Part shown: positions 1 to 37,697 of the stretch, one piece after another
Numbering within the stretch: position 1 is the first letter of the stretch
Layout of the letters: each line of letters opens with the position of its first letter
From: a plasmid
DNA length: 37,697 bases
Direction: 5' to 3' (one strand)
Sequence record: NZ_CP016506.1
Program-made: the position numbers and the translations under genes
Notes under the pieces: generated by a model
What the model saw: the letters and a program-made list of their open reading frames with translations, nothing else
The model's database searches: none
What the model was told of the DNA's origin: nothing

Positions 1-324
1 CAAGGCAAAAAAATAACTTTTGGCTCCGGCAGATGTTTATTACCAAAAACATCTGCCTAATTTCACACCATTTAATATTTTCTGATTGCCTATTAACCAA
101 TGGAAATTTGCACTTCGATAACAAGCCTAGTATATGTCTATTATTAATACGGAAATGCCACACGCAACCATCTTTTGGTAGATGGCTGAAGTCAAATTAG
201 AAAACTGATATCCAGTACGGATGTTGGATGCAGAGTTTCTTCTTCCGGTCAGAGCCACCAACTAAAGTGTATTAGTCGCGACTTGATCTGACACTGAGCC
301 TTGAAAGGTTGAGAGTTACCGGTT

Positions 325-717
325 TTGATATGGGTGTCGAATCCTTATACAAAACACGAGGTAACTCTCATGCTTCATACTACCAATCCCGTTATCAAAC
401 ACAAAGCCGGTTTGCTCAATCTGGCTGAAGAACTCAGCAACGTATCAAAAGCCTGTAAAATCATGGGCGTTTCGCGTGATACGTTTTATCGTTACCGCGA
501 ACTGGTCGATGAAGGCGGTGTGGATGCGCTGATTAATCGTAGTCGCCGCGCTCCTAACCTTAAGAACCGTACCGATGAGGCAACTGAACAGGCTGTTGTT
601 GATTACGCCGTCGCTTTCCCGGCACACGGTCAGCACCGGACCAGCAACGAGCTGCGTAAACAGGACGTTTTTATCTCCGGCAGTGGTGTCCGTTCTGTCT
701 GGTTGGTTACCCCATAA
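325..717 (+). pseudogene. transposase N-terminal (HTH) fragment, IS481 family
   Basis: 130-aa ORF with a helix-turn-helix transposase N-terminus and no DDE domain following in frame. Confidence 0.6.
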
Positions 718-764
718 CCTTGAGAATTTCAAAAAACGTCTGAAAGCACTGGAAGAAAAAGGCG

Positions 765-1013
765 ATGTCCCCGCAAACCAACGGCATCTGCGAGCGGTTC
801 CATAAAACAATCCTGAACGAATTTTATCAGGTAACGTTCCGTAAAAAACTGTACGGCGATCTTGATACATTACGGTCGGATCTTGATGAATGGCTGGCTC
901 ACTATAATAATGAGCGAACCCATCAGGAAAAAATGTGCAATGGGCGGACGCCAATGGAAACGTTACTTGATGGAAAGCGCATCTGGGCCGAGAAAAATTT
1001 AAGCCAGATGTAA
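765..1013 (+). pseudogene. transposase C-terminal fragment (integrase-core tail), IS481 family
   Basis: 82-aa ORF carrying the NGxxERFHKTxxxEf and YNxxRxHxxxxxxTP motifs typical of the rve-domain C-terminus. Confidence 0.55.
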
Positions 1014-1118
1014 TCTGACAGATACCTGTATAAATAACCGGTAACTGTCAGATCAGGTCTGAGCTAATACAACTAAAGGCAGGAGAACACAAAAATTCCG
1101 TTCTCCAAACAGCCCCAA

Positions 1119-1628
1119 TTATGCTAATGTTCTTGAAACATCGCCATACGTATCAACAAGATACTTTTCTGTTAAATGCAACCCGATACACTTACCAATT
1201 TGTATGGAGTGTTTCCAGACACATGCGGCGGCTTCTTTATCATACTCCCTGAGAGTCCACTTTGATACTTTTGATGCAGTATCATCCAACCCATGCTCAC
1301 TATGAAAACCAAATTCCATATCTATTTCCTTATCTGTGATTAGATCTTTTGACATAAAAATTGGAGCACAAGGAGGATCAATACCATGATTTGGATAACC
1401 TATAGCTACATCATAGATTTTCTCATCAATACAAACCCATGAGTGATCAAAATACGAACCTGTTGCAGGGTTACGAACTTCTCCAATAAGAAGTGTTGGT
1501 TCAAATCCAACTTCCTTTGCCAAAATGTAAAAAACAGCAGATATATCATGACAAGCGCCATACCATTTTTTCTCTTCAACAAGAGAGATTAGATTTTCAA
1601 ATATCTGTTTTAGTTTGGAATTATTCAT
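1119..1628 (-). CDS. hypothetical protein, possible transglutaminase-like Cys-His-Asp peptidase fold
   Basis: The ORF track gives 1119..1868, but that overlaps hns out of frame. The internal ATG at 1628 has an AGAGG RBS. The order GACHD ... DHSW ... CIDEKIYD suggests a Cys/His/Asp triad. Confidence 0.45.
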   Translation of the reverse strand: MNNSKLKQIFENLISLVEEKKWYGACHDISAVFYILAKEVGFEPTLLIGEVRNPATGSYFDHSWVCIDEKIYDVAIGYPNHGIDPPCAPIFMSKDLITDKEIDMEFGFHSEHGLDDTASKVSKWTLREYDKEAAACVWKHSIQIGKCIGLHLTEKYLVDTYGDVSRTLA

Positions 1629-1686
1629 AAAACCTCTAAGCTGATAATAGAAGATCAACCCCTCCCATGAAAGGAGGGCTGTAGAA

Positions 1687-2121
1687 TCACTTCTCGATGA
1701 GAAACTCATCAAGGGAGCGACCTCCTGCCAGTGCTTCTGCAATCGGTTTTGGCGCACGCCCACGACCAGACCAGTATTTCGTTTCGCCATTTTCTTCAAA
1801 TTGATATTTAGGCGGCGCTTTTGGTAACGTTTTTTTACGTGATTTTGGTGCTTCTTCGGACAGACCAAGCAGTTCTTCCGGTGAGAACCCCTCTCCGGCG
1901 ATTAACTGAAGCAGTTCCTGACGTTTCCGTTCACGCTCTGCTCGTTCAGCCGCTTCACGTTCAGCATCTTCACGACGTTCTTCAATAACAACGTTGAGCT
2001 TTTCCTGCATTTCGAGCAACTGCTCAAAATCAATCTCACGGGCAAACACACGCAATGAACGAATATTCATCATAGTCCGGCTGATAATGCCGTATTCATC
2101 TTCTTTAGTCAGTTCGCTCAT
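1687..2121 (-). CDS. hns: H-NS family nucleoid-associated protein (plasmid Sfh/H-NS-like)
   Basis: An N-terminal coiled-coil with an acidic/basic ER-rich linker, then a C-terminal YxxxNGETKxWxGxGRxP DNA-binding motif. An AAGAGGA RBS precedes the start. Confidence 0.88.
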   Translation of the reverse strand: MSELTKEDEYGIISRTMMNIRSLRVFAREIDFEQLLEMQEKLNVVIEERREDAEREAAERAERERKRQELLQLIAGEGFSPEELLGLSEEAPKSRKKTLPKAPPKYQFEENGETKYWSGRGRAPKPIAEALAGGRSLDEFLIEK

Positions 2122-2136
2122 AATTAATCCTCTTGT

Positions 2137-10291: not shown

Positions 10292-10295
10292 ATTA

Positions 10296-12315: not shown

Positions 12316-12326
12316 CTCTTGTTTCC

Positions 12327-12611: not shown

Positions 12612-12625
12612 AAGACAACCTCTCT

Positions 12626-13375: not shown

Positions 13376-13385
13376 TGGTGATTCC

Positions 13386-16139: not shown

Positions 16140-16157
16140 AATGCGCCCATCCTTTAA

Positions 16158-16487
16158 TTACGCAAGCCAGTCAGGAATATATGGTGCAACAATAAAGATG
16201 ATAATTCCGATAACAAGTGGGACTATCCATGAGGTATGTTGACGAGAAAATATCGCAATATACCCAATAACAAGAGCAATAATTGTAATTGCAGGCTTAC
16301 GAATATCCGTTAAAAAATCAATTATTTTCTGTAAAAAACCAGTTGTCTTCGTAGACACATCATCCGCAAAAGCAGGTTCTGCAACACAAAGCATCAACGC
16401 AGCCATAAATAGAGAAAGCGTTAAATAACGTTTATTCAGATTTAATTTCAACATCTTTTGTTTCCTTTTCATTTGATACAGTGCCAC
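16158..16487 (-). CDS. pilX2: VirB2-family pilin precursor
   Basis: A long signal peptide followed by two hydrophobic helices. The true start is probably the internal Met at 16454. Confidence 0.8.
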   Translation of the reverse strand: MALYQMKRKQKMLKLNLNKRYLTLSLFMAALMLCVAEPAFADDVSTKTTGFLQKIIDFLTDIRKPAITIIALVIGYIAIFSRQHTSWIVPLVIGIIIFIVAPYIPDWLA

Positions 16488-23968: not shown

Positions 23969-24032
23969 TTTACATATTTCCGCCTTTGTGGTTATGATTT
24001 CACCATCAGAACTTAAAAACCACAGGTAATGT

Positions 24033-24869
24033 ATGAACTTACTGAGCGTTACAAAGAAAACAAAAATTCGCCACAGAAATGAAATTAACAGCACATTCTC
24101 ATCGTTGCCTTTGTCTGCCAGAAGAATTTTGTTTATGGCTATGGCGCAGATTGATTCACGTGAAGAGTTATCTGAGGGGGCAACCTTTCGTATTACGGCT
24201 CGGGAATATGCATTTATCGCTGATATTGATGTAACAGGTGCTTACCGGCAGTTGAAAGAGGGGGCAGAAGAACTTCAGGCCAGTGTTATTCGCATTCCTC
24301 GAAATCAACTTCTCACACCTCAGGGCAATCAAAGCTCTGGACATACGAAGAAGAGAGGTAAATTACCTTCTGATGCAGTCAGGCTTATGAACCTGACTGC
24401 GTTTTGTGATTATGTTGAAAGTGAAGGATATATTGATATTGCTTTTTCACATGTCATTGAGCCATATATCACGATGTTAAAGGATTCTTACACTACTCAG
24501 GTTTTGATATCGTCTGTAAGACTCGCTGATCAAAATTCAAATATGCTTTATCAGTTTATCAGGAAACAATACAGCAGTGGTAAAAAGACATTTTTCGACA
24601 TTGAAGTAGATGTATTAAAGGATGAACTTGAATTATTCAGAATAGATAATGGCGAAAAAGTTTACCTTTATCAGAATTTTAAGGATTTTAATAAGGTTTT
24701 TCTGCAAAAAAATATTGAAAAAATAAATCAATATACAGAGATTAATCATCTCGAAGTTAAAATCGTTGAGAGAGTCGCAAGAAGAGCATCAAAGCTAAGG
24801 TTTTCTTATAAAATAGATAAAGAAAGTGAGGGCTTAGATATCAGAATACCATACGGTTTCAGAGGATAA
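24033..24869 (+). CDS. pir: Rep_3-family replication initiator (pi protein)
   Basis: N-terminal KKTKIRHRNE and LAYRQLKEG-like motifs shared with R6K pi. Iterons lie upstream. Confidence 0.9.
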   Translation: MNLLSVTKKTKIRHRNEINSTFSSLPLSARRILFMAMAQIDSREELSEGATFRITAREYAFIADIDVTGAYRQLKEGAEELQASVIRIPRNQLLTPQGNQSSGHTKKRGKLPSDAVRLMNLTAFCDYVESEGYIDIAFSHVIEPYITMLKDSYTTQVLISSVRLADQNSNMLYQFIRKQYSSGKKTFFDIEVDVLKDELELFRIDNGEKVYLYQNFKDFNKVFLQKNIEKINQYTEINHLEVKIVERVARRASKLRFSYKIDKESEGLDIRIPYGFRG

Positions 24870-24908
24870 TTGCATAAACTTCGTTTTGAGATCGAAATGA
24901 GGTAGCTC

Positions 24909-25355
24909 ATGGCTAAAATCTATCAATTCCCTCAGGGGGAAGAACGTGCTAAATTCAGGAAAGAAATTGCCAGGGAGCGTAAGAAACGTTTTGCAGTGAA
25001 AACAGGGAGCACTTTTGTTAAGTGGCTTGGCTGGGGATGGTTTTATCTTCGTCTTCTTGTCGCGAGTGTTTTACATTTTATCTTTGTTTTTGTGTTAGCC
25101 ATTCTTGGTGCGTTTAAATGGGCTGTATTCTGGCTGGGTGGTATTTTGTGTGTCATCACTTGGTATCATCTCGATCACCAGTTATGGACGCCACAAAATC
25201 TGACTATACCGGTGATTACGGCAACCTGGATTTTGGGACTGCTGGCTGAGCCTCTGATGGAGCTGCTCAACAAAACTATGCCTTGGCACAAGTTACTTGT
25301 TCCCGAACCTGCGGACGAAAGCACCGAGAACAGTAGCGAGATAAGCCAGCAATGA
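24909..25355 (+). CDS. bis: Bis-like membrane protein following pir
   Basis: 148 aa with two TM helices. Position and size match R6K bis. Confidence 0.6.
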   Translation: MAKIYQFPQGEERAKFRKEIARERKKRFAVKTGSTFVKWLGWGWFYLRLLVASVLHFIFVFVLAILGAFKWAVFWLGGILCVITWYHLDHQLWTPQNLTIPVITATWILGLLAEPLMELLNKTMPWHKLLVPEPADESTENSSEISQQ

Positions 25356-25389
25356 TGCTACTCAGCAGTTATGCCAGTCCCTGCCTTTT

Positions 25390-25491
25390 CACTGCGATGC
25401 AGGATAGGGCAAACGCCGCAAAATGACGTCTCTGACGCCATTCTGCAACGTTTGCCCGGTGACCTACAGTCGGTTCTTGTCGGAGAATTTT
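25390..25491. repeat. oriT: oriT-like element, right copy (inverted) of the roughly 100-bp repeat; nic motif on minus strand
   Basis: Reverse complement of 19840-19940 with 2-3 mismatches. Extends to the RBS of the flanking gene. Confidence 0.6.
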
Positions 25492-25848
25492 ATGGAATAT
25501 CAGGTGAGAGAGTTTATTAACGAAAAATATACTAAGGCTGTTAATATTTTAAAGGATAACCTTAAAGAAAACTACCATGTTTTTTATGGTGTGAGATTAA
25601 GTGAGATTCTTTTTCCAGCCAGTGAGTATGGCACTGATGCTTTCTTTAAAGAGTTTGAATTAATTAACAGTGTAATACTTCCACTGGTAATCTTTGATTT
25701 AACACAACGCAAGCCAATGATGATTATCAGCTTCGATAAGATACTTGATGCCAGTTTGTTGGAAGGAACAAATATTGTGGTTCTTGAATGTATTACCCTC
25801 GCTGATCTTCTGACAAATGATAACATTGATTTTTTATATAAAAGCTAA
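25492..25848 (+). CDS. hypothetical protein (118 aa)
   Basis: GGAG RBS shared with the oriT repeat. The ORF track start at 25423 lies inside the repeat. Confidence 0.55.
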   Translation: MEYQVREFINEKYTKAVNILKDNLKENYHVFYGVRLSEILFPASEYGTDAFFKEFELINSVILPLVIFDLTQRKPMMIISFDKILDASLLEGTNIVVLECITLADLLTNDNIDFLYKS

Positions 25849-26822
25849 GAGTCTCCTTTCAGTTTAAATTTTCTGCTTGGGTCGCCAAGTGTTATTGAGT
25901 CTACTTCATGTGAGTAATGAAGTGTATGATAATGTGCTGGATTTTTCAGATAATCAGGGAGTGATATTATTTTTCCGCAGCTAATTGCAGAATGAAACCA
26001 GTTGCGGAATGTCTCGCTATTTGTTTTTAATGCATCTTTTGGAATAAATACTAATTTTATGTTGGAAACGTAATTAACAGGTTTAAGTATGGTATGTCTG
26101 TTTTGTCCAAAGTCTTTTAAAGCATCTGTAAACTCGTATTCAGATGTATAAATTCTAGTTTCTTTATTAAGGGTTTTGATCTGGAATATGAATGAATAGT
26201 AATTCTTATCAAGTATTTCAACAGTGCCTGGGTCTATACTCAGTTGTTTAATAACAGCTTCTCTTTTATACTCTAACCCGTCTCTGACTGATTGATATAC
26301 AACCATTGCTGCATGATGTGAACCACCACTGTTTGAAGCTACATATCGGTCAAACCAAGAATAATATTTAACATTAATAGGGTTGCGTGGGGGGAAACCT
26401 TCATGCTCAATGTGCCATATATTATCTTTCCAGTCTAAAATATTTTCAGCTTTCAGATTTTCGGCAGGATACATCCCCTCTCCCCAAGAATAAAGATCTT
26501 TGAACCAACTACCATTTATTACCTTGCTCCATCCACAACCGAAACTTTTCGAGTCAGTCAGAGATTGTATTTTGTTAAAATCGAAGTCCAGAGAGTGTTT
26601 CTTATCTGTAGTTATTAAGTTGCTCAGAATTTCAGCCAGATCCTTGTCAATATATCTCAGTGAGTATTCGCTAAATATATTTTCAAGCTGCAATATGGTG
26701 TCTGCATCTGCTGTAGGTTTAAATAACTTAATATCAGCAAGATTTTTAAACGTTGCTGTGGTCAGTTTATGGTGATCTGTCAACCTGTAGAGGTCACAGA
26801 TCAATTCGGTTAAATATCTCAT
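25845..26822 (-). CDS. hypothetical protein (325 aa), distal gene of par operon
   Basis: A long ORF with no recognisable motifs, co-oriented with parA/parG. Confidence 0.6.
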   Translation of the reverse strand: MRYLTELICDLYRLTDHHKLTTATFKNLADIKLFKPTADADTILQLENIFSEYSLRYIDKDLAEILSNLITTDKKHSLDFDFNKIQSLTDSKSFGCGWSKVINGSWFKDLYSWGEGMYPAENLKAENILDWKDNIWHIEHEGFPPRNPINVKYYSWFDRYVASNSGGSHHAAMVVYQSVRDGLEYKREAVIKQLSIDPGTVEILDKNYYSFIFQIKTLNKETRIYTSEYEFTDALKDFGQNRHTILKPVNYVSNIKLVFIPKDALKTNSETFRNWFHSAISCGKIISLPDYLKNPAHYHTLHYSHEVDSITLGDPSRKFKLKGDS

Positions 26823-26846: not shown

Positions 26847-27128
26847 TTAGAATTTTGCAGACTCAAGCAACCAGTGATTCTTTATGTTTTCATCCTGGCT
26901 GTTGTACATCGCCAGCGCCGCTTTGAGAACGGTTGTTTTGCTCTGCCCTGTTCTGATAGCTTCAGCTTCCAGTATGTCCTCAAAATGGGCTGAAAGTCTG
27001 AAGTTCATCAACTTTGGTTTACCCACTACAGGCGCTCTGGTAGCGCCGGAGATAAAACGCGCGGTTTCTGCGTTTGTTGCTGGTTGCTGAGATTCATCGA
27101 TGTTCGGACGGTTTAGTTTTAAAGCCAT
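26847..27128 (-). CDS. parG: ParG/RHH-type centromere-binding protein
   Basis: The start at MALKLNRPN has a GGGGA RBS. A flexible N-terminus is followed by a C-terminal ribbon-helix-helix (KTTVLKAALAMY). Confidence 0.65.
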   Translation of the reverse strand: MALKLNRPNIDESQQPATNAETARFISGATRAPVVGKPKLMNFRLSAHFEDILEAEAIRTGQSKTTVLKAALAMYNSQDENIKNHWLLESAKF

Positions 27129-27225
27129 GACAATTTCCCCTTGTACGGTATGCATTAATAGTAAATATCATACTATCTTTATATTATCTTTACAATGTAA
27201 AGGTTTATAGATGGTATTGATATTA

Positions 27226-27888
27226 CTATAAAATTCCAATTTCCTGCGCCACTAGTTCAATCTGTGCTTTCGCTGTTGAAAGGCTTGATGCCCGGCTAAC
27301 GTCATGTACCCCTGCCCCTTCATTACAGGCGCTTTCATACACATCCAGCTCGGATATCCGGGTTTTAAGAGGTTGAATCCAGATGTTGTCCGAACGCAGT
27401 AATTTATCCAGATCAATGGCCGCTTTTCTGTGGCGGGGTTTCGCTGAGTTGATTCTGGTGAACAGCACCCACGGTTCCAGGGCTGCGTTAGCTTTCTGAG
27501 CGGTGCGGATTTTCTCTGTAACACTGGTCAGAGTTTCGCTTTCGAAATCAGAGGACGGCTTAACCAGTGTTACCACGATATCTGATACTGTCAGGGCGCT
27601 ACGGAACTCCTGGCTGTCGTGGCCGGGGCAATCGACAATGAGGACTTCACACAGCTTACTAAGTCGCTTAATTTCATTGCTGACGTTTCCGTAAGCTGCG
27701 TGAACCGGGATAGTGAGTAAGCCGTTATCTGTCCGCTTTTCGTTCCAGCTCAACAGATCGTGGTTTTTATCTGTCTTGAGGATAATTACCGACTTACCTT
27801 TATTGACCAGCATTGAGCCTGTGTTAGCCACGTAGGTGCTTTTGCCTACACCACCCTTATCTGATACGACAAGCAAGATTTTACCCAT
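27226..27888 (-). CDS. parA: ParA/ParF-type small Walker partition ATPase
   Basis: Deviant Walker A KGGVGKST. 220 aa. Confidence 0.85.
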   Translation of the reverse strand: MGKILLVVSDKGGVGKSTYVANTGSMLVNKGKSVIILKTDKNHDLLSWNEKRTDNGLLTIPVHAAYGNVSNEIKRLSKLCEVLIVDCPGHDSQEFRSALTVSDIVVTLVKPSSDFESETLTSVTEKIRTAQKANAALEPWVLFTRINSAKPRHRKAAIDLDKLLRSDNIWIQPLKTRISELDVYESACNEGAGVHDVSRASSLSTAKAQIELVAQEIGIL

Positions 27889-27889
27889 T

Positions 27890-28140
27890 TCAGAATTCCT
27901 CTCTTTATGACGTAAAGATTATGTAAAGACTGTCTTATCTTTACATTGTGTGTTGTTCGTAAAGATTATTTTGTCTTTACAGTGTCTTTATATTACAAAT
28001 GATTTACCATGTAAAGCACAAATAAAGATAAGCTTGTATTTATGTTATCTTTATTGTGTAAAGATTTGTGTGTATTTATAGTGGCTTTACGTGGTAAAGC
28101 TGAGACTGTCTTTACATCATCTTTATGTTGTAAATTTCTG
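27890..28140. repeat. parC: centromere/operator region: about 10 heptad repeats GTAAAGA / TCTTTAC in both orientations between divergent parA and resolvase
   Basis: Visible reiteration of cgtaaagat, tgtaaagac, tctttacat and similar heptads. Confidence 0.65.
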
Positions 28141-28268
28141 TGTGACATTGTCACTTTATGGTCGGAGGTCTGTTTTCTGGTTCTTTTTGAGTGTGCCTTT
28201 CCTGTCGATCTACTTTCTGGTGCATTTTGGGTATAGTGGTGTAACCTTATGTGAACCGGTTCTGTAAT

Positions 28269-28913: not shown

Positions 28914-29023
28914 AGGAGTAGGGGGCTAATATACCTGCAAGGCAGGATATTAACTCAGGAGATTGGGGGTGTGGTGTTTAGTCAATGCATTTGAATATTG
29001 TAACTAAAATATGTTTTTATTAA

Positions 29024-29050
29024 AGGCCGGAGGTGGTTAGCCCCCGGCCT
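29024..29050. other. GC-rich stem-loop (aggccggaggtggttagcccccggcct) at 3' end of toxin gene; conserved in second toxin locus
   Basis: Inverted repeat with no U-tract. Followed in both loci by the conserved tagttacgtttccgc. Confidence 0.5.
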
Positions 29051-29067
29051 TAGTTACGTTTCCGCCA

Positions 29068-29151
29068 TCAGCCCATCAACTGGAGAAGGTAGCGAATCAG
29101 TTCAAGAAGTGAGATTAGTGCCCCCAGAACGATGATTGCTTTATCAATCAT
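29068..29151 (-). CDS. dinQ: DinQ-like type I toxin peptide (27 aa, MIDKAIIVLGALISLLELIRYLLQLMG), not in ORF track
   Basis: 22 of 27 residues match E. coli DinQ. GGAG RBS 7 nt upstream. A single TM helix. Confidence 0.7.
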   Translation of the reverse strand: MIDKAIIVLGALISLLELIRYLLQLMG

Positions 29152-29253
29152 CCGTTTACTCCATTATATGGAGCAGACTCCCGATACTTACTCTTACACT
29201 GCCTGTCATATCGGTTGTTCTTCGGTGTTGGTTGAAGACAGTTCCACTCCAGC

Positions 29254-29374
29254 CAGAGCCACCAACTCAGGGCTGGAAAACACAAAAAAGCCCGATTACC
29301 CGTCGGGTTTTTTTGTGCCTGTCGTTTGGCTGTACTTCCGTTTTTTCCCCTTCATTTGAGGGATTTTTCTTTCA
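29254..29374 (+). ncRNA. 120-bp repeat A: candidate agrB-like antitoxin sRNA gene (hairpin ccagcc..ggctgg then bidirectional terminator aaaaaagcccgattacccgtcgggttttttt)
   Basis: 96% identical to 34924-35043. Contains a tgcctgtcg stretch resembling tgcctgtca in the toxin leader. Confidence 0.4.
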
Positions 29375-29835
29375 TTTTTTGTTGCAGCCAATACCGCTGA
29401 TCGCGTTGGCCAACAGAACGATGCCGTTACCGGCATTATCATGAATCCCATTTTTTCAGTAAGTTGCAGCATACAAAGTAATTAAAAAAACGTCATTTTT
29501 TGTTGATGGATGCAGTAGCGGTGGTGTGCTACGTGAAATCTGGGAAATGCTGGCGGGTAAGTGACTCAATTTTTTAATCTCCGCACCTGTTTTTTTGGAC
29601 GTGCCAGCAATTATGACCTGAAGCAGAGGTGCGTCCGACAACAAAAATTCCGATCACCAGAAAAAATTTTGGACATTTTTTCCGATAATGCATTTTTGTC
29701 CAGGGGGATATGAACTACAGGGCAGGGCGAAAAGGAAGCGGTTATCTTGAATATCCATAGGATATGGGCTCATATGCCGGAATAGGGCACCAGATAAAGG
29801 AAATGAATTCAGTGTATGTTGTAACTAATAGGATC

Positions 29836-29859
29836 TGGACAGAATCACCTGAACGTCCA
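29836..29859. promoter_or_regulatory. operator-like palindrome TGGACA-N12-cGTCCA (copy 1)
   Basis: One of four near-identical sites, found only in the island. Confidence 0.45.
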
Positions 29860-29961
29860 GTCGGGCGCTAATCTATAATAAATGACCGTAGAAGGGCCAT
29901 TTCTACGGCAAAGTTCTGGAGATGATAAAATAAGAGCCTTAAACAATAAAAGGATTTGCTT

Positions 29962-30069
29962 ATGACACTGGACCAACTGCTTGAAATCCACGACCGCGCT
30001 GGGCTGAGCACCTATGAACAGGAAACAATTATATCTTTCATTAACCAGCGGCGAGGTGACTTGGTGTAA
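29962..30069 (+). CDS. hypothetical 35-aa protein, not in ORF track
   Basis: AAGGA RBS. 6 nt upstream of the next ORF. Confidence 0.3.
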   Translation: MTLDQLLEIHDRAGLSTYEQETIISFINQRRGDLV

Positions 30070-30074
30070 AAGCG

Positions 30075-30362
30075 TTGCCGGAAATTATGCCTCCAGTATC
30101 TTGCGGCTGGATCTCCAGAAGAATAAAACAGCGTTCTCAGGAGCAGGCAGACGAAAATAGCTGGAATTATTATAAACAGAAGATTCAGGAATGGATAACG
30201 CTAATCGAATTGCATGAGGCATCACTTACCAGGGGGGAAAAGCTAACGCACTTTGTGGGAAAGCATAAATGGTGGTTAGGAGGCACTTGCGCAGTTATCG
30301 CATCAATTACAAGCACTGTGATAGCTAGCTGGATTCTTTCGTTATGGACTTGGGCTAACTGA
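30075..30362 (+). CDS. hypothetical C-terminally membrane-anchored protein (95 aa)
   Basis: C-terminal hydrophobic helix (GGTCAVIASITSTVIASWILSLW). Confidence 0.45.
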   Translation: MPEIMPPVSCGWISRRIKQRSQEQADENSWNYYKQKIQEWITLIELHEASLTRGEKLTHFVGKHKWWLGGTCAVIASITSTVIASWILSLWTWAN

Positions 30363-30677
30363 CGTGACAGAAGCTGCGTTACGTCCAAGTTGATAAAAAG
30401 TTGTTATCCACAGAGAACAGGGCGGTCATCCGGCGGGTTCAATAATATGGTATTATTACAGCACCTTAAAAAATAAGGATTGCGGACGGATGATATATTG
30501 ATAAAGGATACTCATGCGTGTAAAACGCAAAATACCCTGAGTAATCAGGGTATTAAACGCGGAAAAGTAAAGGTTGAGCGCTTTACATTTTCCATTCACA
30601 CCAGAGGCGTGACTAAATCTAAAATTGATTCTACGGCAACGTTCAATCTACGTCAAATCGCCAATGGTTTTCCTGTT

Positions 30678-30809
30678 ATGAAAATTACCGGAGGCTTCAT
30701 GTTGTTAACCATCATCGACACCTATCTTCATGCTTCATTACTGACACAGATACTGGTAATCCCGTTTATCTGTGCGGTGGTGTGGGCGGTAAAGAAAATC
30801 CGGGTATAA
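30678..30809 (+). CDS. small hydrophobic peptide (43 aa; or 36 aa from ATG 30699 after GGAGG)
   Basis: A single TM helix with a KKIRV tail. A strong terminator lies downstream. The ORF track's 109-aa version lacks an RBS. Confidence 0.4.
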   Translation: MKITGGFMLLTIIDTYLHASLLTQILVIPFICAVVWAVKKIRV

Positions 30810-30813
30810 CTTA

Positions 30814-30860
30814 AACATGGCTGGCTGAGAGGCCAGCCATGTTCAGTGAGTTTTGTTTCG
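30814..30860 (+). terminator. Rho-independent terminator (aacatggctggc..gccagccatgtt + T-rich)
   Basis: 12-bp perfect stem followed by gttttgttt. Confidence 0.7.
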
Positions 30861-30862
30861 AA

Positions 30863-30886
30863 TGGACAGAATTACCTGAGTGTCCA
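30863..30886. promoter_or_regulatory. operator-like palindrome TGGACA-N12-TGTCCA (copy 2)
   Basis: Upstream of the 116-aa gene. Confidence 0.45.
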
Positions 30887-30959
30887 ACCCATTGCGGCGC
30901 AGGGATAAAGCTGTAAACTTTTACTGATGAACAAAGTAGCCCGTTGGGCATAAGACAAC

Positions 30960-31310
30960 ATGGAGCAAACCTTGGCTAAGGTAACCAGAATTCAGGCCGG
31001 AAGATACGCAGTCGATGATGGGCGTTGCATTATAAAAAATAACTCTGGGTGGCTTATTGTCGATGCTAATGGCGCTCATGATTTTGGACCTGTCCCCACA
31101 TTAGCAGCAGCTAAGGAATATGTTGAGTCTGGTACTGTTCCGCTAAGGCAGCACAATTTTTCTACATCTCATGGTCGAAGACAAAGTAAAAAAGAATTTA
31201 ATGCGTATTTGGCATCTGAAGCTAAAAATGGCAATCCAATGCCAGCCATTCTTTGGATAATTGTCCTTTGCATCATCTGCGGCATTGTAGTTGCAGTTCG
31301 AGGTTATTAA
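30960..31310 (+). CDS. hypothetical C-terminally membrane-anchored protein (116 aa)
   Basis: Soluble N-terminal domain and a C-terminal TM helix (ILWIIVLCIICGIVVAV). Confidence 0.5.
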   Translation: MEQTLAKVTRIQAGRYAVDDGRCIIKNNSGWLIVDANGAHDFGPVPTLAAAKEYVESGTVPLRQHNFSTSHGRRQSKKEFNAYLASEAKNGNPMPAILWIIVLCIICGIVVAVRGY

Positions 31311-31313
31311 TCT

Positions 31314-31337
31314 TGGACAGAAAATGCTGTATGTCCA
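31314..31337. promoter_or_regulatory. operator-like palindrome TGGACA-N12-TGTCCA (copy 3)
   Basis: Upstream of the 169-aa gene and the OLD gene. Confidence 0.45.
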
Positions 31338-31393
31338 GTCAGCCGGAGAATTATACTAGCGACCATGATCATCACAGGAAGAACGCGTAACAG

Positions 31394-31903
31394 ATGGCAA
31401 CTGAGTGGGTAGATGTGGCTGATAATGCCGTTAAAATTGGGCTGGGTGCATTAATCACCATTGTTGGTGGCTGGATTACACTGAAATTAACACACTGCCA
31501 CGAAATAAGAAAAGATGCAATAGCTCAGCGACTGCGGGATATAGATAAAAAAACTGACCGCTATATAGATTTTCTTTCTTCATCGCAAACGCTAATGCAG
31601 AAATATCTTTATGAATCATGTGATCCAGGTAGCGAGGACTACACCAATTATATGCGGTTGCATAATATTGTAAGCCTGACATCCTCCCCTGAATTGCGAA
31701 TCTATGCTTTTGATACTCAGTCCAAAGTATCGCAATTTATCCTGCTCAGAAAGCCCAACGAACCAGAGGTTATTGATTCCTGTCGCAATGCCGCGAGAAA
31801 CGCCGTTTCTGTGCTTCAGGGGGCAGTGAGTGCTGAATTGCTTCAGGATAAAGCAGCACTTCAGGACAAACAACATGCATGGTGGGCTTTCTGGCGAAAA
31901 TAA
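31394..31903 (+). CDS. hypothetical N-terminally membrane-anchored protein (169 aa)
   Basis: AGGAAG RBS. N-terminal TM helix. Confidence 0.55.
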   Translation: MATEWVDVADNAVKIGLGALITIVGGWITLKLTHCHEIRKDAIAQRLRDIDKKTDRYIDFLSSSQTLMQKYLYESCDPGSEDYTNYMRLHNIVSLTSSPELRIYAFDTQSKVSQFILLRKPNEPEVIDSCRNAARNAVSVLQGAVSAELLQDKAALQDKQHAWWAFWRK

Positions 31904-32008
31904 AGCAGAACAGTGGAGGAAGAGCCATTTATCCAAGTAGCGAAAGACAGTTAAAGCCTTGGGAAAAAATGTCGATAATCCGAGCAATATTCTATCGTAG
32001 GAAGAAAA

Positions 32009-33910
32009 ATGGAAATAGTATCATTTAAAGTTTCTCAGTATAGGTCTATTTCAGGGGAGATATCCTCTGATAACTTTAATGGATTAACCATTGTTGGGCA
32101 AAACAACAGTGGTAAAACAAACCTATTAAAAGCTATGAGGGTTTTTTTTGAAGGAAAATTTAATCCTGACTTATATGACTATGAAAAAGATAAGCCACAT
32201 GGTGTTAAGCAAGGACAAACTAGTTTTGCTGTAAGATTTACTTTTTCTGAAAGTGAGCTAGATGATGTCTCTGAGGATTTGAGCCAAGACGATGATGATG
32301 ACGATGATGACTCGATTATTGAACTTGGTGTTTTAGGGGAGCAAGAAGAACCTAGTAATTCTATTTCATTTGATGATGGCAGCTCTAAACAACAAGAATC
32401 AAAACCAACTCAATCAAGAGGCAGAAAGCTAAGTTTGAGAGATAGATATTTGCAGCTGTTTAACATGATTGATGACTCCAGGTTAAATTCACCTCAAAAC
32501 GAAGTGACCGTACATCTGACAATATCTAATAAAAACAATTACTTTTACACTGTCTTTAAAGGTTACAAGAGGAAACCTGAAGTAACTTCCTCCATGTATA
32601 CATCTGTTGAAAGAAGGTTCATAGAAAAAATACTTTCTAGTTTTGAGTGTGTGTATATACCATCGTCAAAAAGTATTGATGATATATATCATAATCTATT
32701 AGTTCCATATGTTAGGAGTGAAGTAGCTTCAGCCATGAAAACATCGGTTCAAGTGATTCATGATAAACTGTTGGAAGTGTCTGAAAAGATAACAAATGAA
32801 ATGATTCTAAGCGGTATAGATGACTGTAGCTTTATGATTAAAGCTCCGCCATCTCTTGATGAGTTATTTGGTCGCTTTGAGGTTTCAATAAAAGATACTA
32901 TTGAGAATGTGATATCGAGTAAAGGTATGGGGCTACAATGCTTATCTTTATTTTCTTCATTTAAATCTATTTCAGAGAGAAAACTTACTCTAGGTAAGAA
33001 AACGATTTGGATGGTTGAGGAGCCTGAGTCTTTCTTGCATCCCTCATTAGGCCGGTCATGTAATCACATTTTCAAATCACTGATGGATGTTGCTTATGTT
33101 CTTATTACAACTCATTCCTTATCATTTGTCAGTGATGAGCCAAGTAAGATCATTGAGTTATATAAAGATGACGCCGGTGTTACAAAAGATAAAAAGCATG
33201 AAAAAAGATTTAATGCAGTTGCAAGCATAAGAGAAAATCTTGGGGTCAGATTTTCTGATTTCTTTAACATATCAAGTAGTGCAGTTTTCGTTGAAGGTAT
33301 CACCGACAAACAATATATAGAATCAATATTGAAATTGACATCTGAACATGATGAGTTTAAGAACAGATGGCCTTTTCTGAGGAGTGCTAAAGTTGATGAG
33401 TTTGGTGGAGTCAGTCAACTTGGGGGATTCTTGAAAGGGTGCTACGAGTTTATTTCTAAAGATGTCCCCGTAATATCTGTTTTTGACGGTGATGAAGCTG
33501 GGGTCAAAGAAAGAACCAGATTACAAAGCTACTTTGGTAAAAAACAAATTAGATTTGAGTCAAATAAAGACTATATTTCTGTAAGAAGTGGTTTTGCTAT
33601 TGAAGGCCTCTTCCCTGACGATTTCATTTCTGACGCAATGGAAACCCATCCGTCGTGGTTTATCGGAGGAAAATCTGTTGATGCCGATGATGTAATTGAA
33701 CCATTCAAAGTGCAAGATAATAAAAAAACTAACTTATTAAATTTCTTCCTGGAAAAATGTCGTGTTCAACCTATATGCGGTTGGATTTCTCGGTGGGAAA
33801 AGGTGTTTAACGTCATAGACTCAGCCTTGCGAGATAAAAGTGAATCCATCACAAACAAAAAACGAACCGAAGATACTTCCGGTAACACTTCAGCTCATCA
33901 AGCTGCATAA
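32009..33910 (+). CDS. OLD-family ATP-dependent nuclease (ABC-type ATPase + C-terminal Toprim)
   Basis: Walker A GQNNSGKTNLLKA. The OLD signature Walker B VEEPESFLHP. H-loop ITTHS. Toprim motifs VFVEGITD and FDGDEAG. AGGAAG RBS. Confidence 0.85.
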   Translation: MEIVSFKVSQYRSISGEISSDNFNGLTIVGQNNSGKTNLLKAMRVFFEGKFNPDLYDYEKDKPHGVKQGQTSFAVRFTFSESELDDVSEDLSQDDDDDDDDSIIELGVLGEQEEPSNSISFDDGSSKQQESKPTQSRGRKLSLRDRYLQLFNMIDDSRLNSPQNEVTVHLTISNKNNYFYTVFKGYKRKPEVTSSMYTSVERRFIEKILSSFECVYIPSSKSIDDIYHNLLVPYVRSEVASAMKTSVQVIHDKLLEVSEKITNEMILSGIDDCSFMIKAPPSLDELFGRFEVSIKDTIENVISSKGMGLQCLSLFSSFKSISERKLTLGKKTIWMVEEPESFLHPSLGRSCNHIFKSLMDVAYVLITTHSLSFVSDEPSKIIELYKDDAGVTKDKKHEKRFNAVASIRENLGVRFSDFFNISSSAVFVEGITDKQYIESILKLTSEHDEFKNRWPFLRSAKVDEFGGVSQLGGFLKGCYEFISKDVPVISVFDGDEAGVKERTRLQSYFGKKQIRFESNKDYISVRSGFAIEGLFPDDFISDAMETHPSWFIGGKSVDADDVIEPFKVQDNKKTNLLNFFLEKCRVQPICGWISRWEKVFNVIDSALRDKSESITNKKRTEDTSGNTSAHQAA

Positions 33911-33984
33911 TCGATTGTGTGCACCAAGGTTGCACATACACCTGATTAATCAAGAGTGAGACCATAACAAGCCTATATCAGATA

Positions 33985-34016
33985 ACAGCCCTCTTCATAA
34001 GAGGGCTGTCTTTTTC
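33985..34016 (+). terminator. Rho-independent terminator (acagccctcttcataagagggctgt + TTTTT)
   Basis: 10-bp stem and a T-run. Confidence 0.75.
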
Positions 34017-34239
34017 GCGGGCATCGTACTTGGAAAATGGAAAACATCCTACGCTAAGAGCGTTTTTTAAACAACCGGCTTGTTGGTTTTTACGAGATAC
34101 TGTGCAGTTGAAGGAACAAGATAAAGGAATTAAAGACCCTTTAGTACCATACTTTCATGAAATTTTCCCATATTTTCTTTTAGATCGTGCAACAGCGAAA
34201 AGACGTAGGAATTGGCTTGATTAGCCGCAATACTATTTC

Positions 34240-34262
34240 TGGACAGAATGAGTGTATGTCCA
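34240..34262. promoter_or_regulatory. operator-like palindrome TGGACA-N11-TGTCCA (copy 4)
   Basis: Downstream of the OLD gene and upstream of the toxin-2 locus. Confidence 0.45.
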
Positions 34263-34441
34263 AGTCGGGCGAGGAATTAAACGAGGGGCGTAAAAAAGGC
34301 CGCTTACGCGACCTCAGCCTTTTGCGGTTTTGGCTTGGTGATATACCACGATAGACAACCGACAAACATCGCAACAGGGAAAGGAAGAAGTAAACAGCGC
34401 CCCAAAATGCTCATAAAATCCATAAATCCTCCTTTGTTAAA

Positions 34442-34470
34442 GGGCAGGAAGCGGTTCACTTCCTGCCCTT
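34442..34470. other. GC-rich stem-loop (gggcaggaagcggttcacttcctgccc) at 3' end of second toxin gene
   Basis: Counterpart of 29024-29050, followed by the same tagttacgtttccgc. Confidence 0.5.
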
Positions 34471-34489
34471 AGTTACGTTTCCGCTGTCA

Positions 34490-34585
34490 TCAGTCGATGA
34501 ACTGGCGAATCAGTTCCAGAATTGCAATCAGCGCGTTTGCAACGGCGACCACAGCCCTGAGAACGATGATTAACAAATTAATCAT
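34490..34585 (-). CDS. DinQ-family-like type I toxin peptide 2 (31 aa, MINLLIIVLRAVVAVANALIAILELIRQFID), not in ORF track
   Basis: Same architecture as 29068-29151, with GGAG-aaacgg-ATG, a shared ELIR motif, and the same flanking sequences. Confidence 0.6.
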   Translation of the reverse strand: MINLLIIVLRAVVAVANALIAILELIRQFID

Positions 34586-34923
34586 CCGTTTCTCCAGTAA
34601 AACTGGAGGAAATCACCGTTGCTTACTCATACACTGCCTGTCACAACGGCTCTCTCGCATTGTTAGGTGTAGAGTGACCTCCTCCTGCCAGAGCACCGAA
34701 TACAGCACCACCTGTTTATCCAGCCAGGACTTTAAAATCGTTCATACCCGCAGATACGGGAAGGGCAGGATTGCAAGTCAACTACATGACTAACTGACTG
34801 ATTATACGCTACACAAAACACCCGTTACACCACTAAATGTGGTTCCTTAACCACATTTAGTTGCTTTACAGCACCATAGTGAATAAAATGTAAACGTTAG
34901 GTGTAGAGTAACCTTCTCCAGTC

Positions 34924-35043
34924 AGAGCCACCAACTCAGGGCTGGAAAACACAAAAAAGCCCGATTACCAGTCGGGTTTTTTTGTGCCTGTCGTTCGGCT
35001 GTACTTCCGTTTTTCCCCCTTCATTTGAGGGATTTTTCTTTCA
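34924..35043 (+). ncRNA. 120-bp repeat B: second copy of candidate agrB-like sRNA gene with bidirectional terminator
   Basis: 96% identical to 29254-29374. Confidence 0.4.
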
Positions 35044-35181
35044 GTTTTTTATCGGTGACTGTTTCATGGCTGGATTAATGTGGGGGTAAGGTATAGAGCA
35101 TTGCCTAACCTGCAAACTTTCAATACATTAGTAAGATTAGGATTTTTACTTACTCATCCAAACGAAAAAATGGAATGAAAA

Positions 35182-37697
35182 ATGATTGATTTCACAAATA
35201 AACTCAAGAAAAAAGAACTCCCAAAGAGAATCAACCCAGTTGAAATATATGAGTCATTAGATAGACGTAGCGAAGCTGGTCCATTACGGCCTTCCCAAAA
35301 AACCATTCTAGAACAATGGTTTAACAGTAGACGTAACGAAAGGGATAATATAATTAAACTACACACCGGGGAAGGTAAAACATTAATTGGGTTGCTAATT
35401 TTGCAGTCTAAAATCAATGAGACCAATAGCCCTTGTTTATATGTTTGTCCTAATATTTACTTGGCAAAGCAAGCTGTCAAAGATGCAGAGAAATTTGGCA
35501 TCCCTTATTGTATAATCGATCATAGTAAAATGATACCGGATGATTTCCTTTCAGGAAGAAAAATACTAATCACTCACGTCCAAAAATTATTCAATGGGAA
35601 AACTGCTTTTGGCTTGGGCAGTAAGTCAATTCATGTTAATTCAATTATTTTAGATGACTCACAAGCATGCATTGACTCAATTAAGAACAGCTTTACTATT
35701 AAAGTAGATAATGAAAGCGATCTTTACAAATCAATATTAAATATTTTTTCTGATGAACTACGTGAACAAGGTGAAGGTAGTTACTTAGAAATACAAAATG
35801 GAGTTGGAAATAATACATTACTTCCAATACCATATTGGTCATGGATTGATAAAAAAGAGTTGGTAGCGCAAGAATTACTTAAAAATATTGAAGATAAAAG
35901 AGTGTCTTTCATTTGGCCTTTGATAAAAAATGAAATACACAACTGCCAAGCATTTCTATCTGGTGAATATTTGGAGATTTCACCAATTTTTTCACTAATA
36001 GATTCCTTTGGTAGCTTCAGTAAGGCTAACCATCGTTTTCTAATGTCTGCAACTACACAAGATGATTCATTTTTTATCAAAGGATTAGGCTTTGACGTCG
36101 AAGCGATTAAAAAACCTTTGGTGAATCCTGATCTTGTTTGGTCAGGAGAAAAAATGATTCTAATACCATCATTAATTGATGAGACATTAGACCGTGAAAA
36201 GATCATAAACTGGTTGCTTCGTCCAAATGATAAACGAACATTTGGAACAGTATGTTTAGCACCTAGCTTTGCTAATATAAAACAATTCCAGCGAATTGGG
36301 GCTATTGTAGCAACTACAGAGACAATTTACGACTGCATTGAAAAGTTAAAAAGAGGTGAATTTTCCAATTCAATGGTCTTTGCAAACCGCTACGATGGCA
36401 TTGATTTACCTGATAATTCATGTCGTATTTTAATTATTGACTCTAAGCCATACTCTGAAACTTTAACAGATAGATATGAAGAGGAATGCAGGCCAAGCAG
36501 TGATATCATTAATGTAAAGACAGCCCAGCGTGTGGAACAAGGGTTAGGTCGGAGCGTGAGGGGCGAAAAAGATTATAGCGTAATTATAATCACCGGTGGT
36601 GATCTTGTTCAATTTTTAAAAAGCCCATTAACTACAAAATATTTCTCTCCTCAAACCAGAATGCAAATTGAAATAGGAGGTCAAATTGTAGGTTTTGCTA
36701 AAGATGAAATTGATGAAGGTGCAGAGGCTGATAAATTATTCGTCGGATTAATTAATAAATCTTTGCAACGTGATGAAGGTTGGAAAGAGTATTATGTTGA
36801 AAGCATGAATGAAATTGACATTAGAGATAGAAAAGATAATCTTTATGATCTAATTTCACTAGAATACAAAGCTGAAAAATTATTTATCAAAGGTGATTTA
36901 GACAAAGCATGTGATGTATTGCAAGATATTTGTGATAGATATATTGAGGATGAAATGGAGAAAGGATGGTATCTTCAACTTCAAGCGAGGTACAAATATA
37001 GTATAAGTAAAATTGAATCTAATAAAATTCAAAAATCAGCGTTCCAGCGAAACTGCAATCTACTCAAACCTAAAGATGGTGTTATATATAAAAAAATTGA
37101 CAACATCAATGCTACCAGGGCAAATAGAATAAATAAATGGGTTAGCGCACATACTGATTATCAATCTCTTATGATTTCCGTTGATAGCATCTTGCAAAAT
37201 ATTTCCTTTGGCATTCAATCTGATAAATTTGAAGATGCTTTGCATAACTTAGGTGTTTCTATTGGATTTGTTTGCCAACGACCTGATAAGGAAATCAAAA
37301 AAGGACCTGATAATCTATGGGGGGATGTAGATGGACAGTACTTCCTCTTTGAGTGCAAAAATGAAGTTGATGAAAACCGTTCTGAAATTAATAAAATAGA
37401 AGCAGGTCAGATGAATAACCACTGTGGCTGGTTCGCAGATGAATACGGTAATGCAAAGTGCAAAAAAATCATAATAATAAACACAAGAACACTTTCATAT
37501 CATGGAGATTTCAATGATGAAATATTTGTTATGCGGAAATCAAAGCTTAAACTATTAAAGGATAATGTAAGATCTTTTTTCAAAGAGTTCAAAAATTATG
37601 ACTTGCAATCATTGGATGAGACCATTATCCACAAGTTTATTAAGCCACATAATTTAGATATTGAAAGTCTAACTTCCATTTACACTGAATCAATAAT
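35182..37697 (+). CDS. SF2 helicase (motif I HTGEGKT, motif III SAT, DinG/Rad3-like motif VI QGLGRSVRGEKD) fused to C-terminal PD-(D/E)xK-type nuclease motif (D..VDG..FLFECK); 3' end beyond window
   Basis: An uninterrupted frame of at least 838 codons, translated by hand. Absent from the ORF track because there is no stop inside the window. Very AT-rich. Confidence 0.75.
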   Translation, partial: MIDFTNKLKKKELPKRINPVEIYESLDRRSEAGPLRPSQKTILEQWFNSRRNERDNIIKLHTGEGKTLIGLLILQSKINETNSPCLYVCPNIYLAKQAVKDAEKFGIPYCIIDHSKMIPDDFLSGRKILITHVQKLFNGKTAFGLGSKSIHVNSIILDDSQACIDSIKNSFTIKVDNESDLYKSILNIFSDELREQGEGSYLEIQNGVGNNTLLPIPYWSWIDKKELVAQELLKNIEDKRVSFIWPLIKNEIHNCQAFLSGEYLEISPIFSLIDSFGSFSKANHRFLMSATTQDDSFFIKGLGFDVEAIKKPLVNPDLVWSGEKMILIPSLIDETLDREKIINWLLRPNDKRTFGTVCLAPSFANIKQFQRIGAIVATTETIYDCIEKLKRGEFSNSMVFANRYDGIDLPDNSCRILIIDSKPYSETLTDRYEEECRPSSDIINVKTAQRVEQGLGRSVRGEKDYSVIIITGGDLVQFLKSPLTTKYFSPQTRMQIEIGGQIVGFAKDEIDEGAEADKLFVGLINKSLQRDEGWKEYYVESMNEIDIRDRKDNLYDLISLEYKAEKLFIKGDLDKACDVLQDICDRYIEDEMEKGWYLQLQARYKYSISKIESNKIQKSAFQRNCNLLKPKDGVIYKKIDNINATRANRINKWVSAHTDYQSLMISVDSILQNISFGIQSDKFEDALHNLGVSIGFVCQRPDKEIKKGPDNLWGDVDGQYFLFECKNEVDENRSEINKIEAGQMNNHCGWFADEYGNAKCKKIIIINTRTLSYHGDFNDEIFVMRKSKLKLLKDNVRSFFKEFKNYDLQSLDETIIHKFIKPHNLDIESLTSIYTESI

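Follow-up and report, generated by a model that had tools for sequence, protein, structure and literature searches.

The accessory region and its limits

We analyzed the accessory region of the plasmid in sequence record NZ_CP016506.1, a stretch of 37,697 nucleotides read on one strand (the window, to which all positions refer unless stated otherwise). Downstream of the resolvase gene, this region is predicted to encode two nucleases, an ATPase-Toprim protein of the OLD family and a helicase-nuclease of the Hna type, along with two type I toxin cassettes of the DinQ/AgrB kind and five small open reading frames (ORFs A to E) with hydrophobic or membrane-anchored products (Table 1). A preliminary description, made from the letters alone, had taken positions 28920-37697 for a single AT-rich island of defense-type genes, bracketed by the toxin cassettes and placed in the cargo site of an IncX plasmid.

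Table 1. Features of the accessory region, in window coordinates (aa, amino acids; nt, nucleotides; TM, transmembrane; UTR, untranslated region)
Feature	Position	Strand	Basis or remark
dinQ, 27-aa hydrophobic toxin (MIDKAIIVLGALISLLELIRYLLQLMG)	29068..29151	-	NCBIfam NF041472 toxin_DinQ, 55.5 bits (cut-off 30); dinQ in RefSeq
AgrB copy 1	29228..29315	+	Rfam RF02891, 69.6 bits (gathering score 40)
Direct repeat of ~135 bp, copy 1	29247..29380	+	3' part of AgrB and ~65 nt downstream
ORF A, 133-aa protein with C-terminal TM helix	29962..30362	+	Frameshifted; phrog_34759, E 3.9e-22, function unassigned
ORF B, up to 109 aa, C-terminal TM helix	30480..30809	+	Uncertain start, doubtful coding status
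ORF C, 116-aa tail-anchored membrane protein	30960..31310	+	TM prediction
ORF D, 169 aa, N-terminal TM helix and helical bundle	31394..31903	+	'Peptidase M14' in older annotation
OLD-family nuclease, 633 aa	32009..33910	+	Predicted N-terminal ABC ATPase, acidic insert ~94-135, C-terminal Toprim
Terminator-like hairpin with T-run	33985..34009	+	Downstream of the OLD gene
ORF E, 51-aa hydrophobic peptide	34304..34459	-	Downstream of dqlB; no family match
dqlB, 31-aa DinQ-like toxin (MINLLIIVLRAVVAVANALIAILELIRQFID)	34490..34585	-	NCBIfam NF041473 DinQ_rel, 72.4 bits (cut-off 35)
Degenerate AgrB-like repeat, no terminator	34660..34705	+	Inside the presumed dqlB 5' UTR (two-locus alignment)
AgrB copy 2	34897..34984	+	Rfam RF02891, 62.8 bits (gathering score 40)
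Direct repeat of ~135 bp, copy 2	34916..35050	+	95.6% identical to copy 1
hna, 843 aa	35182..37697 + 1..16	+	phmmer against PDB, PADLOC PDC-S28, Pfam
Last five hna codons and stop	1..16	+	Across the circular junction
Internally deleted insertion sequence, ~800 bp	268..1071		26-nt terminal inverted repeats, transposase ORF fragments
196-aa gene, annotated N-acetyltransferase	1119..1709	-	Pfam Acetyltransf_2 below threshold; abuts hns

With 100% identity, the island matches NC_017624.1, the RefSeq record of pB182_37 from Salmonella Heidelberg B182, which PLSDB types as IncX1, MOBP, MPF_T and conjugative. Within it the two records differ only by single-base changes in length at 29308 and 34959, one in each AgrB copy. 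The reading frame of the helicase runs to the end of the window with no stop codon and is completed by bases 1-16 (...IYTESIIKAKK, then stop), which brings it to the length of the RefSeq protein, and NC_017624.1 carries window 1-187 immediately after its copy of the window's final base. The window is plasmid pB182_37, a circle opened within the final five helicase codons, and the closure across its ends that had been assumed is correct. A hairpin at ~29-58 resembles a terminator of hna.

In composition the island is less uniform than had been described. Its GC content is 38.7%, compared to 41.2% for the whole window and 41.9% for the backbone (1687-28913), which itself dips locally to 34-37%. 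The marked AT-richness belongs to the genes for OLD (35.5% GC) and Hna (33.2% GC) and to no others, whereas the remaining segments, 28920-32008 and 33911-35181, have 43.3-43.4% GC, similar to the backbone.

Comparison with sister IncX1 plasmids separates the region into two layers. These plasmids are ~99% identical to the window from the resolvase to 34365 and 81-94% identical in the dqlB/AgrB cassette that follows; homology then stops at 35050 and starts again at 1670-1733, at hns. Accessory DNA therefore extends past the window end and through position 1 to ~1670-1733, so that the right edge originally drawn at 37697 has to be moved. The site between resolvase and hns had been correctly recognized as a place for cargo: sister plasmids swap cargo there, and the island DNA lies outside the 30.2-kb consensus IncX1 backbone of the pX1.0 design paper, which treats the remainder as load (PMC3097218). 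The first layer is a ~6-kb dinQ–OLD–dqlB block (28920-35050), which is 98-99% identical across many IncX1-derived plasmids. It leads from dinQ/AgrB beside the resolvase through four small single-pass membrane genes and OLD with its own terminator to a hydrophobic ORF and dqlB/AgrB. The second layer is a variable cargo slot from the end of the second AgrB repeat to hns (35051 to ~1670), which here contains hna together with a dead insertion sequence and a small gene that looks enzyme-like. What had been described as one island is thus a widely shared OLD block plus rare Hna cargo, and the type I cassettes bracket the small ORFs and OLD but not hna, which follows to the right of the second cassette. 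Taken together, the region 28920-37697 with 1 to ~1700 is very probably the accessory DNA, or genetic load, of a conjugative IncX1 plasmid, composed of two layers in which OLD and Hna are independent of each other.

The OLD block is itself load: 148 plasmid records contain its OLD gene, compared to 649 that have this IncX1 rep gene. The dinQ/AgrB cassette adjoining the resolvase is found in 475 records. Some IncX1 plasmids run from dinQ/AgrB directly into fimbrial cargo with no OLD block; in pW1316-2, homology to the window stops at 29750, beyond which lie F18 fimbrial genes. Some of the records with OLD are large IncHI2 plasmids that have captured a fragment between copies of IS26. The ~135-bp direct repeats flank the small ORFs, OLD and dqlB, and the variable slot starts exactly at the end of the right copy; that these AgrB-containing repeats are recurrent junctions for load exchange in IncX1 plasmids is conceivable, if rather unlikely. 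As a separate observation, breakpoints recur in the zone 29747-29860: homology of pF18S033 begins at 29747, with an IS91 transposase gene just upstream, and pEA24_4 carries an insertion of ~1.8 kb at window 29836-29860.

The two nucleases

In a phmmer search of the 843-residue helicase against PDB, its residues 1-835 match residues 1-838 of Hna from Sinorhizobium meliloti (10uj, 9yhn, 9ykj; E 7.9e-235, 785 bits), PADLOC model PDC-S28 matches it over its full length with 1052 bits, and its Pfam matches are ResIII, DEAD and Helicase_C_2. The cryo-electron microscopy paper on S. meliloti Hna that cites 9yhn and 9ykj (bioRxiv 10.1101/2025.11.12.688083; Nat Commun 2026, PMC13381803) describes an 845-residue single-effector abortive-infection system, in which two superfamily 2 (SF2) helicase lobes precede a C-terminal PD-(D/E)xK domain. 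The protein is a 3'-5' exonuclease that acts on single-stranded DNA and has no unwinding activity; it is autoinhibited as an ATP-bound dimer and released by the phage's SSB, the protein that binds single-stranded DNA, and mutants showed that R36 and Q39 are needed for ATPase and K729 for nuclease activity (PMC13381803).

These sites are retained in the plasmid protein. The Q-motif residues for ATPase activity are kept as R36 and Q39, the N-terminal SF2 motifs LRPSQ/HTGEGKT/DDSQ align to LRPAQ/HTGQGKT/DDAH, and the PD-(D/E)xK core GPDNLW...LFECK726, a motif already noted at the C-terminus in the preliminary description, aligns to GPDNLW...LFECK729, which contains the catalytic lysine. These alignments identify the helicase as an orthologue, over its full length, of Hna, which is validated as an abortive-infection defense made of a single protein. 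The Hna encoded on pSymA of S. meliloti has a near-equal length and the same domain order and is likewise a single, plasmid-borne gene. The two differ in host and replicon (Salmonella/E. coli IncX1 here), in the low-GC allele of our plasmid and in motif II, which reads DDSQ instead of DDAH. An E. coli homologue of Hna is reportedly phage-protective as well. If the mechanism is conserved, Hna would form an ATP-autoinhibited dimeric 3'-5' exonuclease for single-stranded DNA, which the SSB of an infecting phage would free, and the infection would be aborted.

At an identity of at least 95%, hna is found in 9 plasmid records, and homologues overall in 211. Of 5426 complete E. coli genomes, 2 have a nearly identical copy, in each case on a plasmid of ~35 kb. 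Close homologues (65-89% identity) reside in integrative elements or genomic islands of Pantoea, Klebsiella and Pectobacterium. A comparison of the neighbors in these three contexts revealed no evident shared gene, as expected of a gene that acts singly. The 196-aa N-acetyltransferase-like gene was considered as a partner of Hna and rejected, since it is unrelated to the downstream neighbors of two close homologues. In Pantoea sp. S61, an Hna of 89% identity adjoins a pair of AAA ATPase and S8 peptidase as well as the conjugative-element genes TraF and TraI (1-3494 of the stretch examined), and this locus is probably another defense neighborhood on an integrative conjugative element.

For the 633-residue protein, homology to OLD nucleases is remote and was approached through a family profile. 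Its ABC ATPase domain is recognized by Pfam (AAA_15, 69.6 bits, cut-off 32.1), and PADLOC matches the protein to Old (E 4.6e-19) and also to AriA and, weakly, GajA. Searched as a single sequence against PDB, it had no OLD-family match and one weak, unrelated match (E 0.79). The profile, built like the conservation analysis from 43 homologues, had OLD of Thermus scotoductus (Ts OLD, 6P74, Class 1) as its best match with E 6.6e-18, followed by GajA and the OLD protein of retron Eco8. The same three were the best full-length Foldseek matches of its AlphaFold2 (AF2) model, which has a mean pLDDT of 83.5. Invariant in the 43 homologues are G30 and K36 of Walker A, E337, E338 and E340 of Walker B, H369 of the H-loop, and the acidic residues of the Toprim domain, namely E429 and D433 (E429-G430-x-x-D433), D493-x-D495 and E532; the VEGxxD motif aligns to LLVEGYGD of Ts OLD. 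The acidic insert comprises ~40 residues of low model confidence, is predicted to be disordered and includes a run of eight aspartates. Closer relatives of the protein have 614-671 residues, compared to ~555-600 in more distant OLD proteins. These similarities in motifs, profile and model lead us to assign it, in agreement with the first reading of the gene, to the OLD family of ABC-ATPase/Toprim nucleases and, by its single-gene architecture, to Class 1.

In a current classification, Class 1 comprises lone ATPase-Toprim genes, Class 2 those accompanied by a UvrD-like gajB, Class 3 retron-linked and Class 4 split AriA/AriB forms (Patel and Seed, NAR 2025, PMC12392090). Neither in this plasmid nor in four unrelated contexts does the gene have an adjacent UvrD-like helicase, a reverse transcriptase or non-coding RNA, or an AriA/AriB split. 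An Edwardsiella homologue (71% identity) is located in a lambdoid prophage, between the genes N and cI, another prophage homologue near a RusA gene, a Serratia homologue as a lone chromosomal gene between housekeeping operons, and that of pAPP1L5 beside a type II restriction-modification (R-M) system and a gene with a TIR domain. These solitary settings fit a stand-alone defense gene. Among Class 1 proteins (Old of phage P2, Ts OLD, Vc OLD of Vibrio cholerae), Ts OLD is the best solved match and the prophage accessory positions of the homologues recall that of old in P2, yet the protein is only distantly similar to them and has the extra acidic insert. As a member of this class it would be an ATP-dependent Toprim nuclease or nickase that on its own blocks phage DNA replication. 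In pEsST410_NW_4 the OLD gene is annotated as two coding sequences (CDSs), an AAA ATPase and a hypothetical protein (13090-14993 of the stretch examined); it is apparently split by mutation, and the gene is therefore not always kept intact.

Toxin cassettes, small membrane proteins and exchangeable cargo

Both type I loci exceed the curated thresholds for a DinQ or DqlB toxin and for the AgrB antisense RNA, all four elements being above their cut-offs, which agrees with the two DinQ-like loci of the preliminary description. DinQ and DqlB each have one predicted TM helix. Locus 1 is compact, with a terminator, the DinQ ORF and AgrB opposite; its AgrB copy lies on the other strand over the expected 5' UTR of dinQ and has an intrinsic terminator at 29281-29317. 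In locus 2 the complete AgrB is found ~190 nt beyond the degenerate repeat, and this repeat is likely the pairing target of AgrB copy 2, as judged from its sequence and place. The arrangement is that of the chromosomal dinQ-agrAB locus of E. coli, where the AgrB small RNA is likewise encoded opposite the toxin and a repeat-based pairing site lies in the toxin 5' UTR. It differs in being plasmid-borne and present twice, as dinQ and as the dqlB variant, and in having no clear LexA operator. We take the 27-aa toxin to resemble chromosomal DinQ closely; the tested evidence is the family score.

By analogy to chromosomal dinQ-agrB and to plasmid addiction of the hok/sok type, AgrB would repress a membrane-depolarizing peptide in each cassette, and loss of the plasmid would release the peptide. 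The cassettes thus probably help to retain the plasmid and its load. Sister plasmids have up to three DinQ-type cassettes in a row. A permissive Rfam scan of the island yielded no RNA families besides the two AgrB copies, a scan for promoter consensus in the island showed no enrichment over shuffled sequences, and in the literature we found no paper that ties IncX1 to DinQ or to PDC-S28.

Upstream of OLD, the four membrane-anchored proteins noted earlier are present as plus-strand ORFs with one predicted TM helix each, except that ORF A is frameshifted. A 1-nt deletion in a T-run (GACTTTGG to GACTTGG) reduces it to a stub of 35 aa and an out-of-frame C-terminal part at 30075-30362. The same deletion is seen in a plasmid of E. 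coli MS 69-1, whereas the gene of pPNCS009991_S1 is intact (133 aa). Among sequenced phages, ORF A matched only one record, a Klebsiella phage of 120 kb. ORF B is annotated in GenBank CP082416 and not in RefSeq; it has no match in Pfam, PADLOC or NCBIfam, and two weak ones in PHROGs with E ~0.006. ORF C has no match in PADLOC, PHROGs, NCBIfam or sequenced phages, and only a sub-threshold one in Pfam. At the position of ORF E, sister plasmids annotate a hypothetical protein of 59 aa.

ORF D belongs to a family that is confined to Enterobacterales, has no Pfam domain and matches in 599 plasmid records. It recurs in the load of IncX and IncF plasmids, and occurs without OLD in the same res–hns region of the IncX4 plasmid pCROD2, in the RepFIB neighborhood of p1658/97 and in other IncX plasmids. 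Its AF2 model (pLDDT 83.9) is all-helical and finds no significant fold match in PDB, the best being sensor four-helix bundles with E 0.03. The label 'peptidase M14' was rejected, as there is neither a Pfam match nor, for this all-helical fold, a significant structural one. While ORF D had no match in sequenced phages, a homologue of 81% identity is found in P2-like prophages of Serratia between portal and gpA, beside a DUF4145 gene and HicAB (6001-6504 of the stretches examined). We take the portal–gpA interval of P2 to be the old/tin hotspot, with cargo that is presumably overwhelmingly antiviral. The homologue at this site is therefore a lead, and a lead only, to a role in defense or exclusion, and that ORF D is a third, unrecognized stand-alone phage-exclusion gene of the island seems rather unlikely.

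Between the second cassette and hns, the genes in the slot differ between plasmids. In our plasmid the 196-aa gene, which has distant homologues with the annotation lasso-peptide biosynthesis or SEC-C domain protein, recurs at an identity of at least 99% in only 6 plasmid records, and all three among the matches listed are Hna plasmids; by this co-occurrence we consider it part of the same rare cargo as hna. In pPNCS009991_S1, the slot is filled by a nucleotidyltransferase (NTase), a SLATT protein and two HEPN proteins (12657-16942 of the stretch examined), which looks like a different defense-type load at the same site; an additional dqlB cassette precedes these genes. The slot of pB16EC1113-2 has an LD-carboxypeptidase, a GNAT acetyltransferase, a SAM methyltransferase, an MFS transporter and a ThiF-family adenylyltransferase (9372-15355 of the stretch examined), a set that presumably resembles the microcin C (mcc) operon. 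That of pEsST410_NW_4 has mrk type 3 fimbriae, and those of E. coli MS 69-1 unnamed2 and pEA24_4 an HTH regulator and an EAL protein. This is the resolvase–hns position of the 'genetic load' described for pOLA52 and in the pX1.0 design, where other plasmids hold mrk fimbriae and other load. Unlike a load of the pOLA52 type, that of pB182_37 consists of defense-type genes and has no resistance or adhesion genes.

Function of the load and alternative readings

The identifiable components all fall into described families, namely Hna, Class 1-type OLD, DinQ/AgrB and the IncX1 load region, and the sequence comparisons support the view that the accessory region is a real defense-type island built from known kinds of parts. 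This part of the preliminary description has therefore stood up: Hna is orthologous to a validated system, relatives of OLD occupy prophage accessory positions or lie beside R-M genes, and PADLOC, run on the island ORFs, matched PDC-S28 in the helicase and Old, AriA and GajA in the 633-aa protein. That hna and OLD have an antiphage function we infer from their characterized relatives. What is particular to this plasmid is an uncharacterized OLD clade, a shared OLD block beside a slot that swaps defense and other cargo, and a generic public annotation that hides both nucleases.

The vicinity of the two nuclease genes, which share a strand and are less than 1.3 kb apart, together with the weak match of GajA models to the OLD protein and the OLD-type ATPase-Toprim fold that GajA has in common with it, could suggest a single nuclease-helicase system of the Gabija (GajA-GajB) type. 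However, they are set apart by a terminator, by ORF E and by the convergent dqlB/AgrB cassette, and the helicase is an SF2 orthologue of Hna, which acts alone, and not a UvrD-like GajB of superfamily 1 (SF1). No gajB is found directly downstream of OLD; the nearest helicase is the unlinked hna, at a distance of 1.27 kb, which is missing from most OLD plasmids (9 records against 148). Elsewhere, OLD homologues occur with no adjacent helicase and Hna homologues with no adjacent OLD. The distribution of the genes, the intervening terminator and cassette and the superfamily of the helicase lead us to reject the pairing, and since there is no UvrD-like gajB, membership in Gabija (Class 2) fails on its defining feature; we accord it next to no probability. 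OLD and Hna are thus separate, independently acquired systems. A joint system of a different kind, new and membrane-linked, could consist of OLD and the upstream ORFs A-D, which are on one strand with short gaps and co-conserved at ~99% in the IncX1 plasmids examined. That the IncX1 copies are so alike is due to their recent common descent, though, and not to selection for linkage. Moreover, ORF A is frameshifted in two plasmids, OLD homologues at 62-90% identity occur without ORFs A-D, and ORF D is present without OLD in hundreds of plasmids and in prophages. As OLD and ORF D are each found without the other, we reject an obligatory system of OLD and membrane proteins and regard a multi-gene unit as very improbable.

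The conservation of 28920-35050 in many IncX1 plasmids and the frequency of dinQ/AgrB beside the resolvase might also be taken to mean that the region is ordinary IncX1 backbone with housekeeping or transfer functions. Against this, OLD is far rarer than the rep gene, the OLD block is missing from IncX1 plasmids in which dinQ/AgrB leads straight into fimbrial cargo, it falls outside the published consensus backbone, and no island ORF matched a transfer or replication family; we can hardly give any credence to a backbone origin. More weight is due to the idea that the nucleases serve conflict between plasmids or plasmid maintenance, for example by attacking competitor plasmids that enter the cell and express SSBs from their leading regions, or by killing cells from which the plasmid is lost. 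The genes reside on a conjugative plasmid beside addiction modules, homologues of Hna are frequent on plasmids, and Hna is triggered by phage SSB; many conjugative plasmids encode SSBs. Yet the characterized Hna and Class 1 OLD proteins are all antiphage, OLD relatives are found in prophages and next to R-M genes, and nothing in the sequence suggests plasmid targets, so that we deem this use of the nucleases unlikely.

Several points weigh against the reading of the region as a load with two independent antiphage nucleases. Pfam Toprim models do not match the C-terminus of the OLD protein, and the assignment of this domain rests on invariant motifs, the structure model and a profile alignment that extends no further than the beginning of the domain. 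The OLD clade with the acidic insert has no characterized member, and one study reports at least one class of archaeal OLD as not antiviral (PMC12796447). No function could be assigned to the small membrane proteins from family or structure searches. The AT-rich genes adjoin the plasmid's own hns/hha and could thus be silenced. Near neither dinQ-type locus is there a perfect LexA box (CTGT-N8-ACAG). One LexA-like site with a single mismatch lies at 34712-34727 upstream of dqlB, but the count of 17 such sites in the window is within chance (mean 11.8, largest 18), so that no LexA box at these loci goes beyond chance expectation. Regulation may therefore differ from that of chromosomal dinQ.

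In food animals, IncX1 plasmids disseminate resistance genes among Salmonella and E. coli. If their load includes antiphage nucleases stabilized by type I cassettes, carriage of such a plasmid could alter the phage sensitivity of its host, which would matter for phage-based therapy and for biocontrol in poultry and cattle, as well as for the persistence of otherwise cryptic plasmids. Since the public names of the two nucleases are "DEAD/DEAH box helicase family protein" and "AAA family ATPase", this defense content is easily missed. The findings overturn nothing in the current understanding; the res–hns slot, which exchanges Hna, NTase-SLATT/HEPN, microcin C-like genes and fimbriae, offers a convenient natural system for the study of cargo turnover.

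Two observations concern the rest of the plasmid. Over its whole length, NC_017624.1 has 0 mismatches to the window and 253 gap events, nearly all of them 1-4 bases absent from the record. They cluster in the rep/bis region and the parA-like region (window 24024-25760 and 27245-28250), where the record has no CDS and the ORFs of the window are intact (24033-24869, 27226-27888). The end of the record repeats window 1-187, and it looks like a poorer assembly of the same plasmid. In the backbone between ddp3 and the parA-like gene, the minus strand encodes a 325-aa DUF6685 protein (25845-26822) and a protein of 102 aa (26847-27155); PADLOC gave no match for either, and both are also present in sister IncX1 plasmids.

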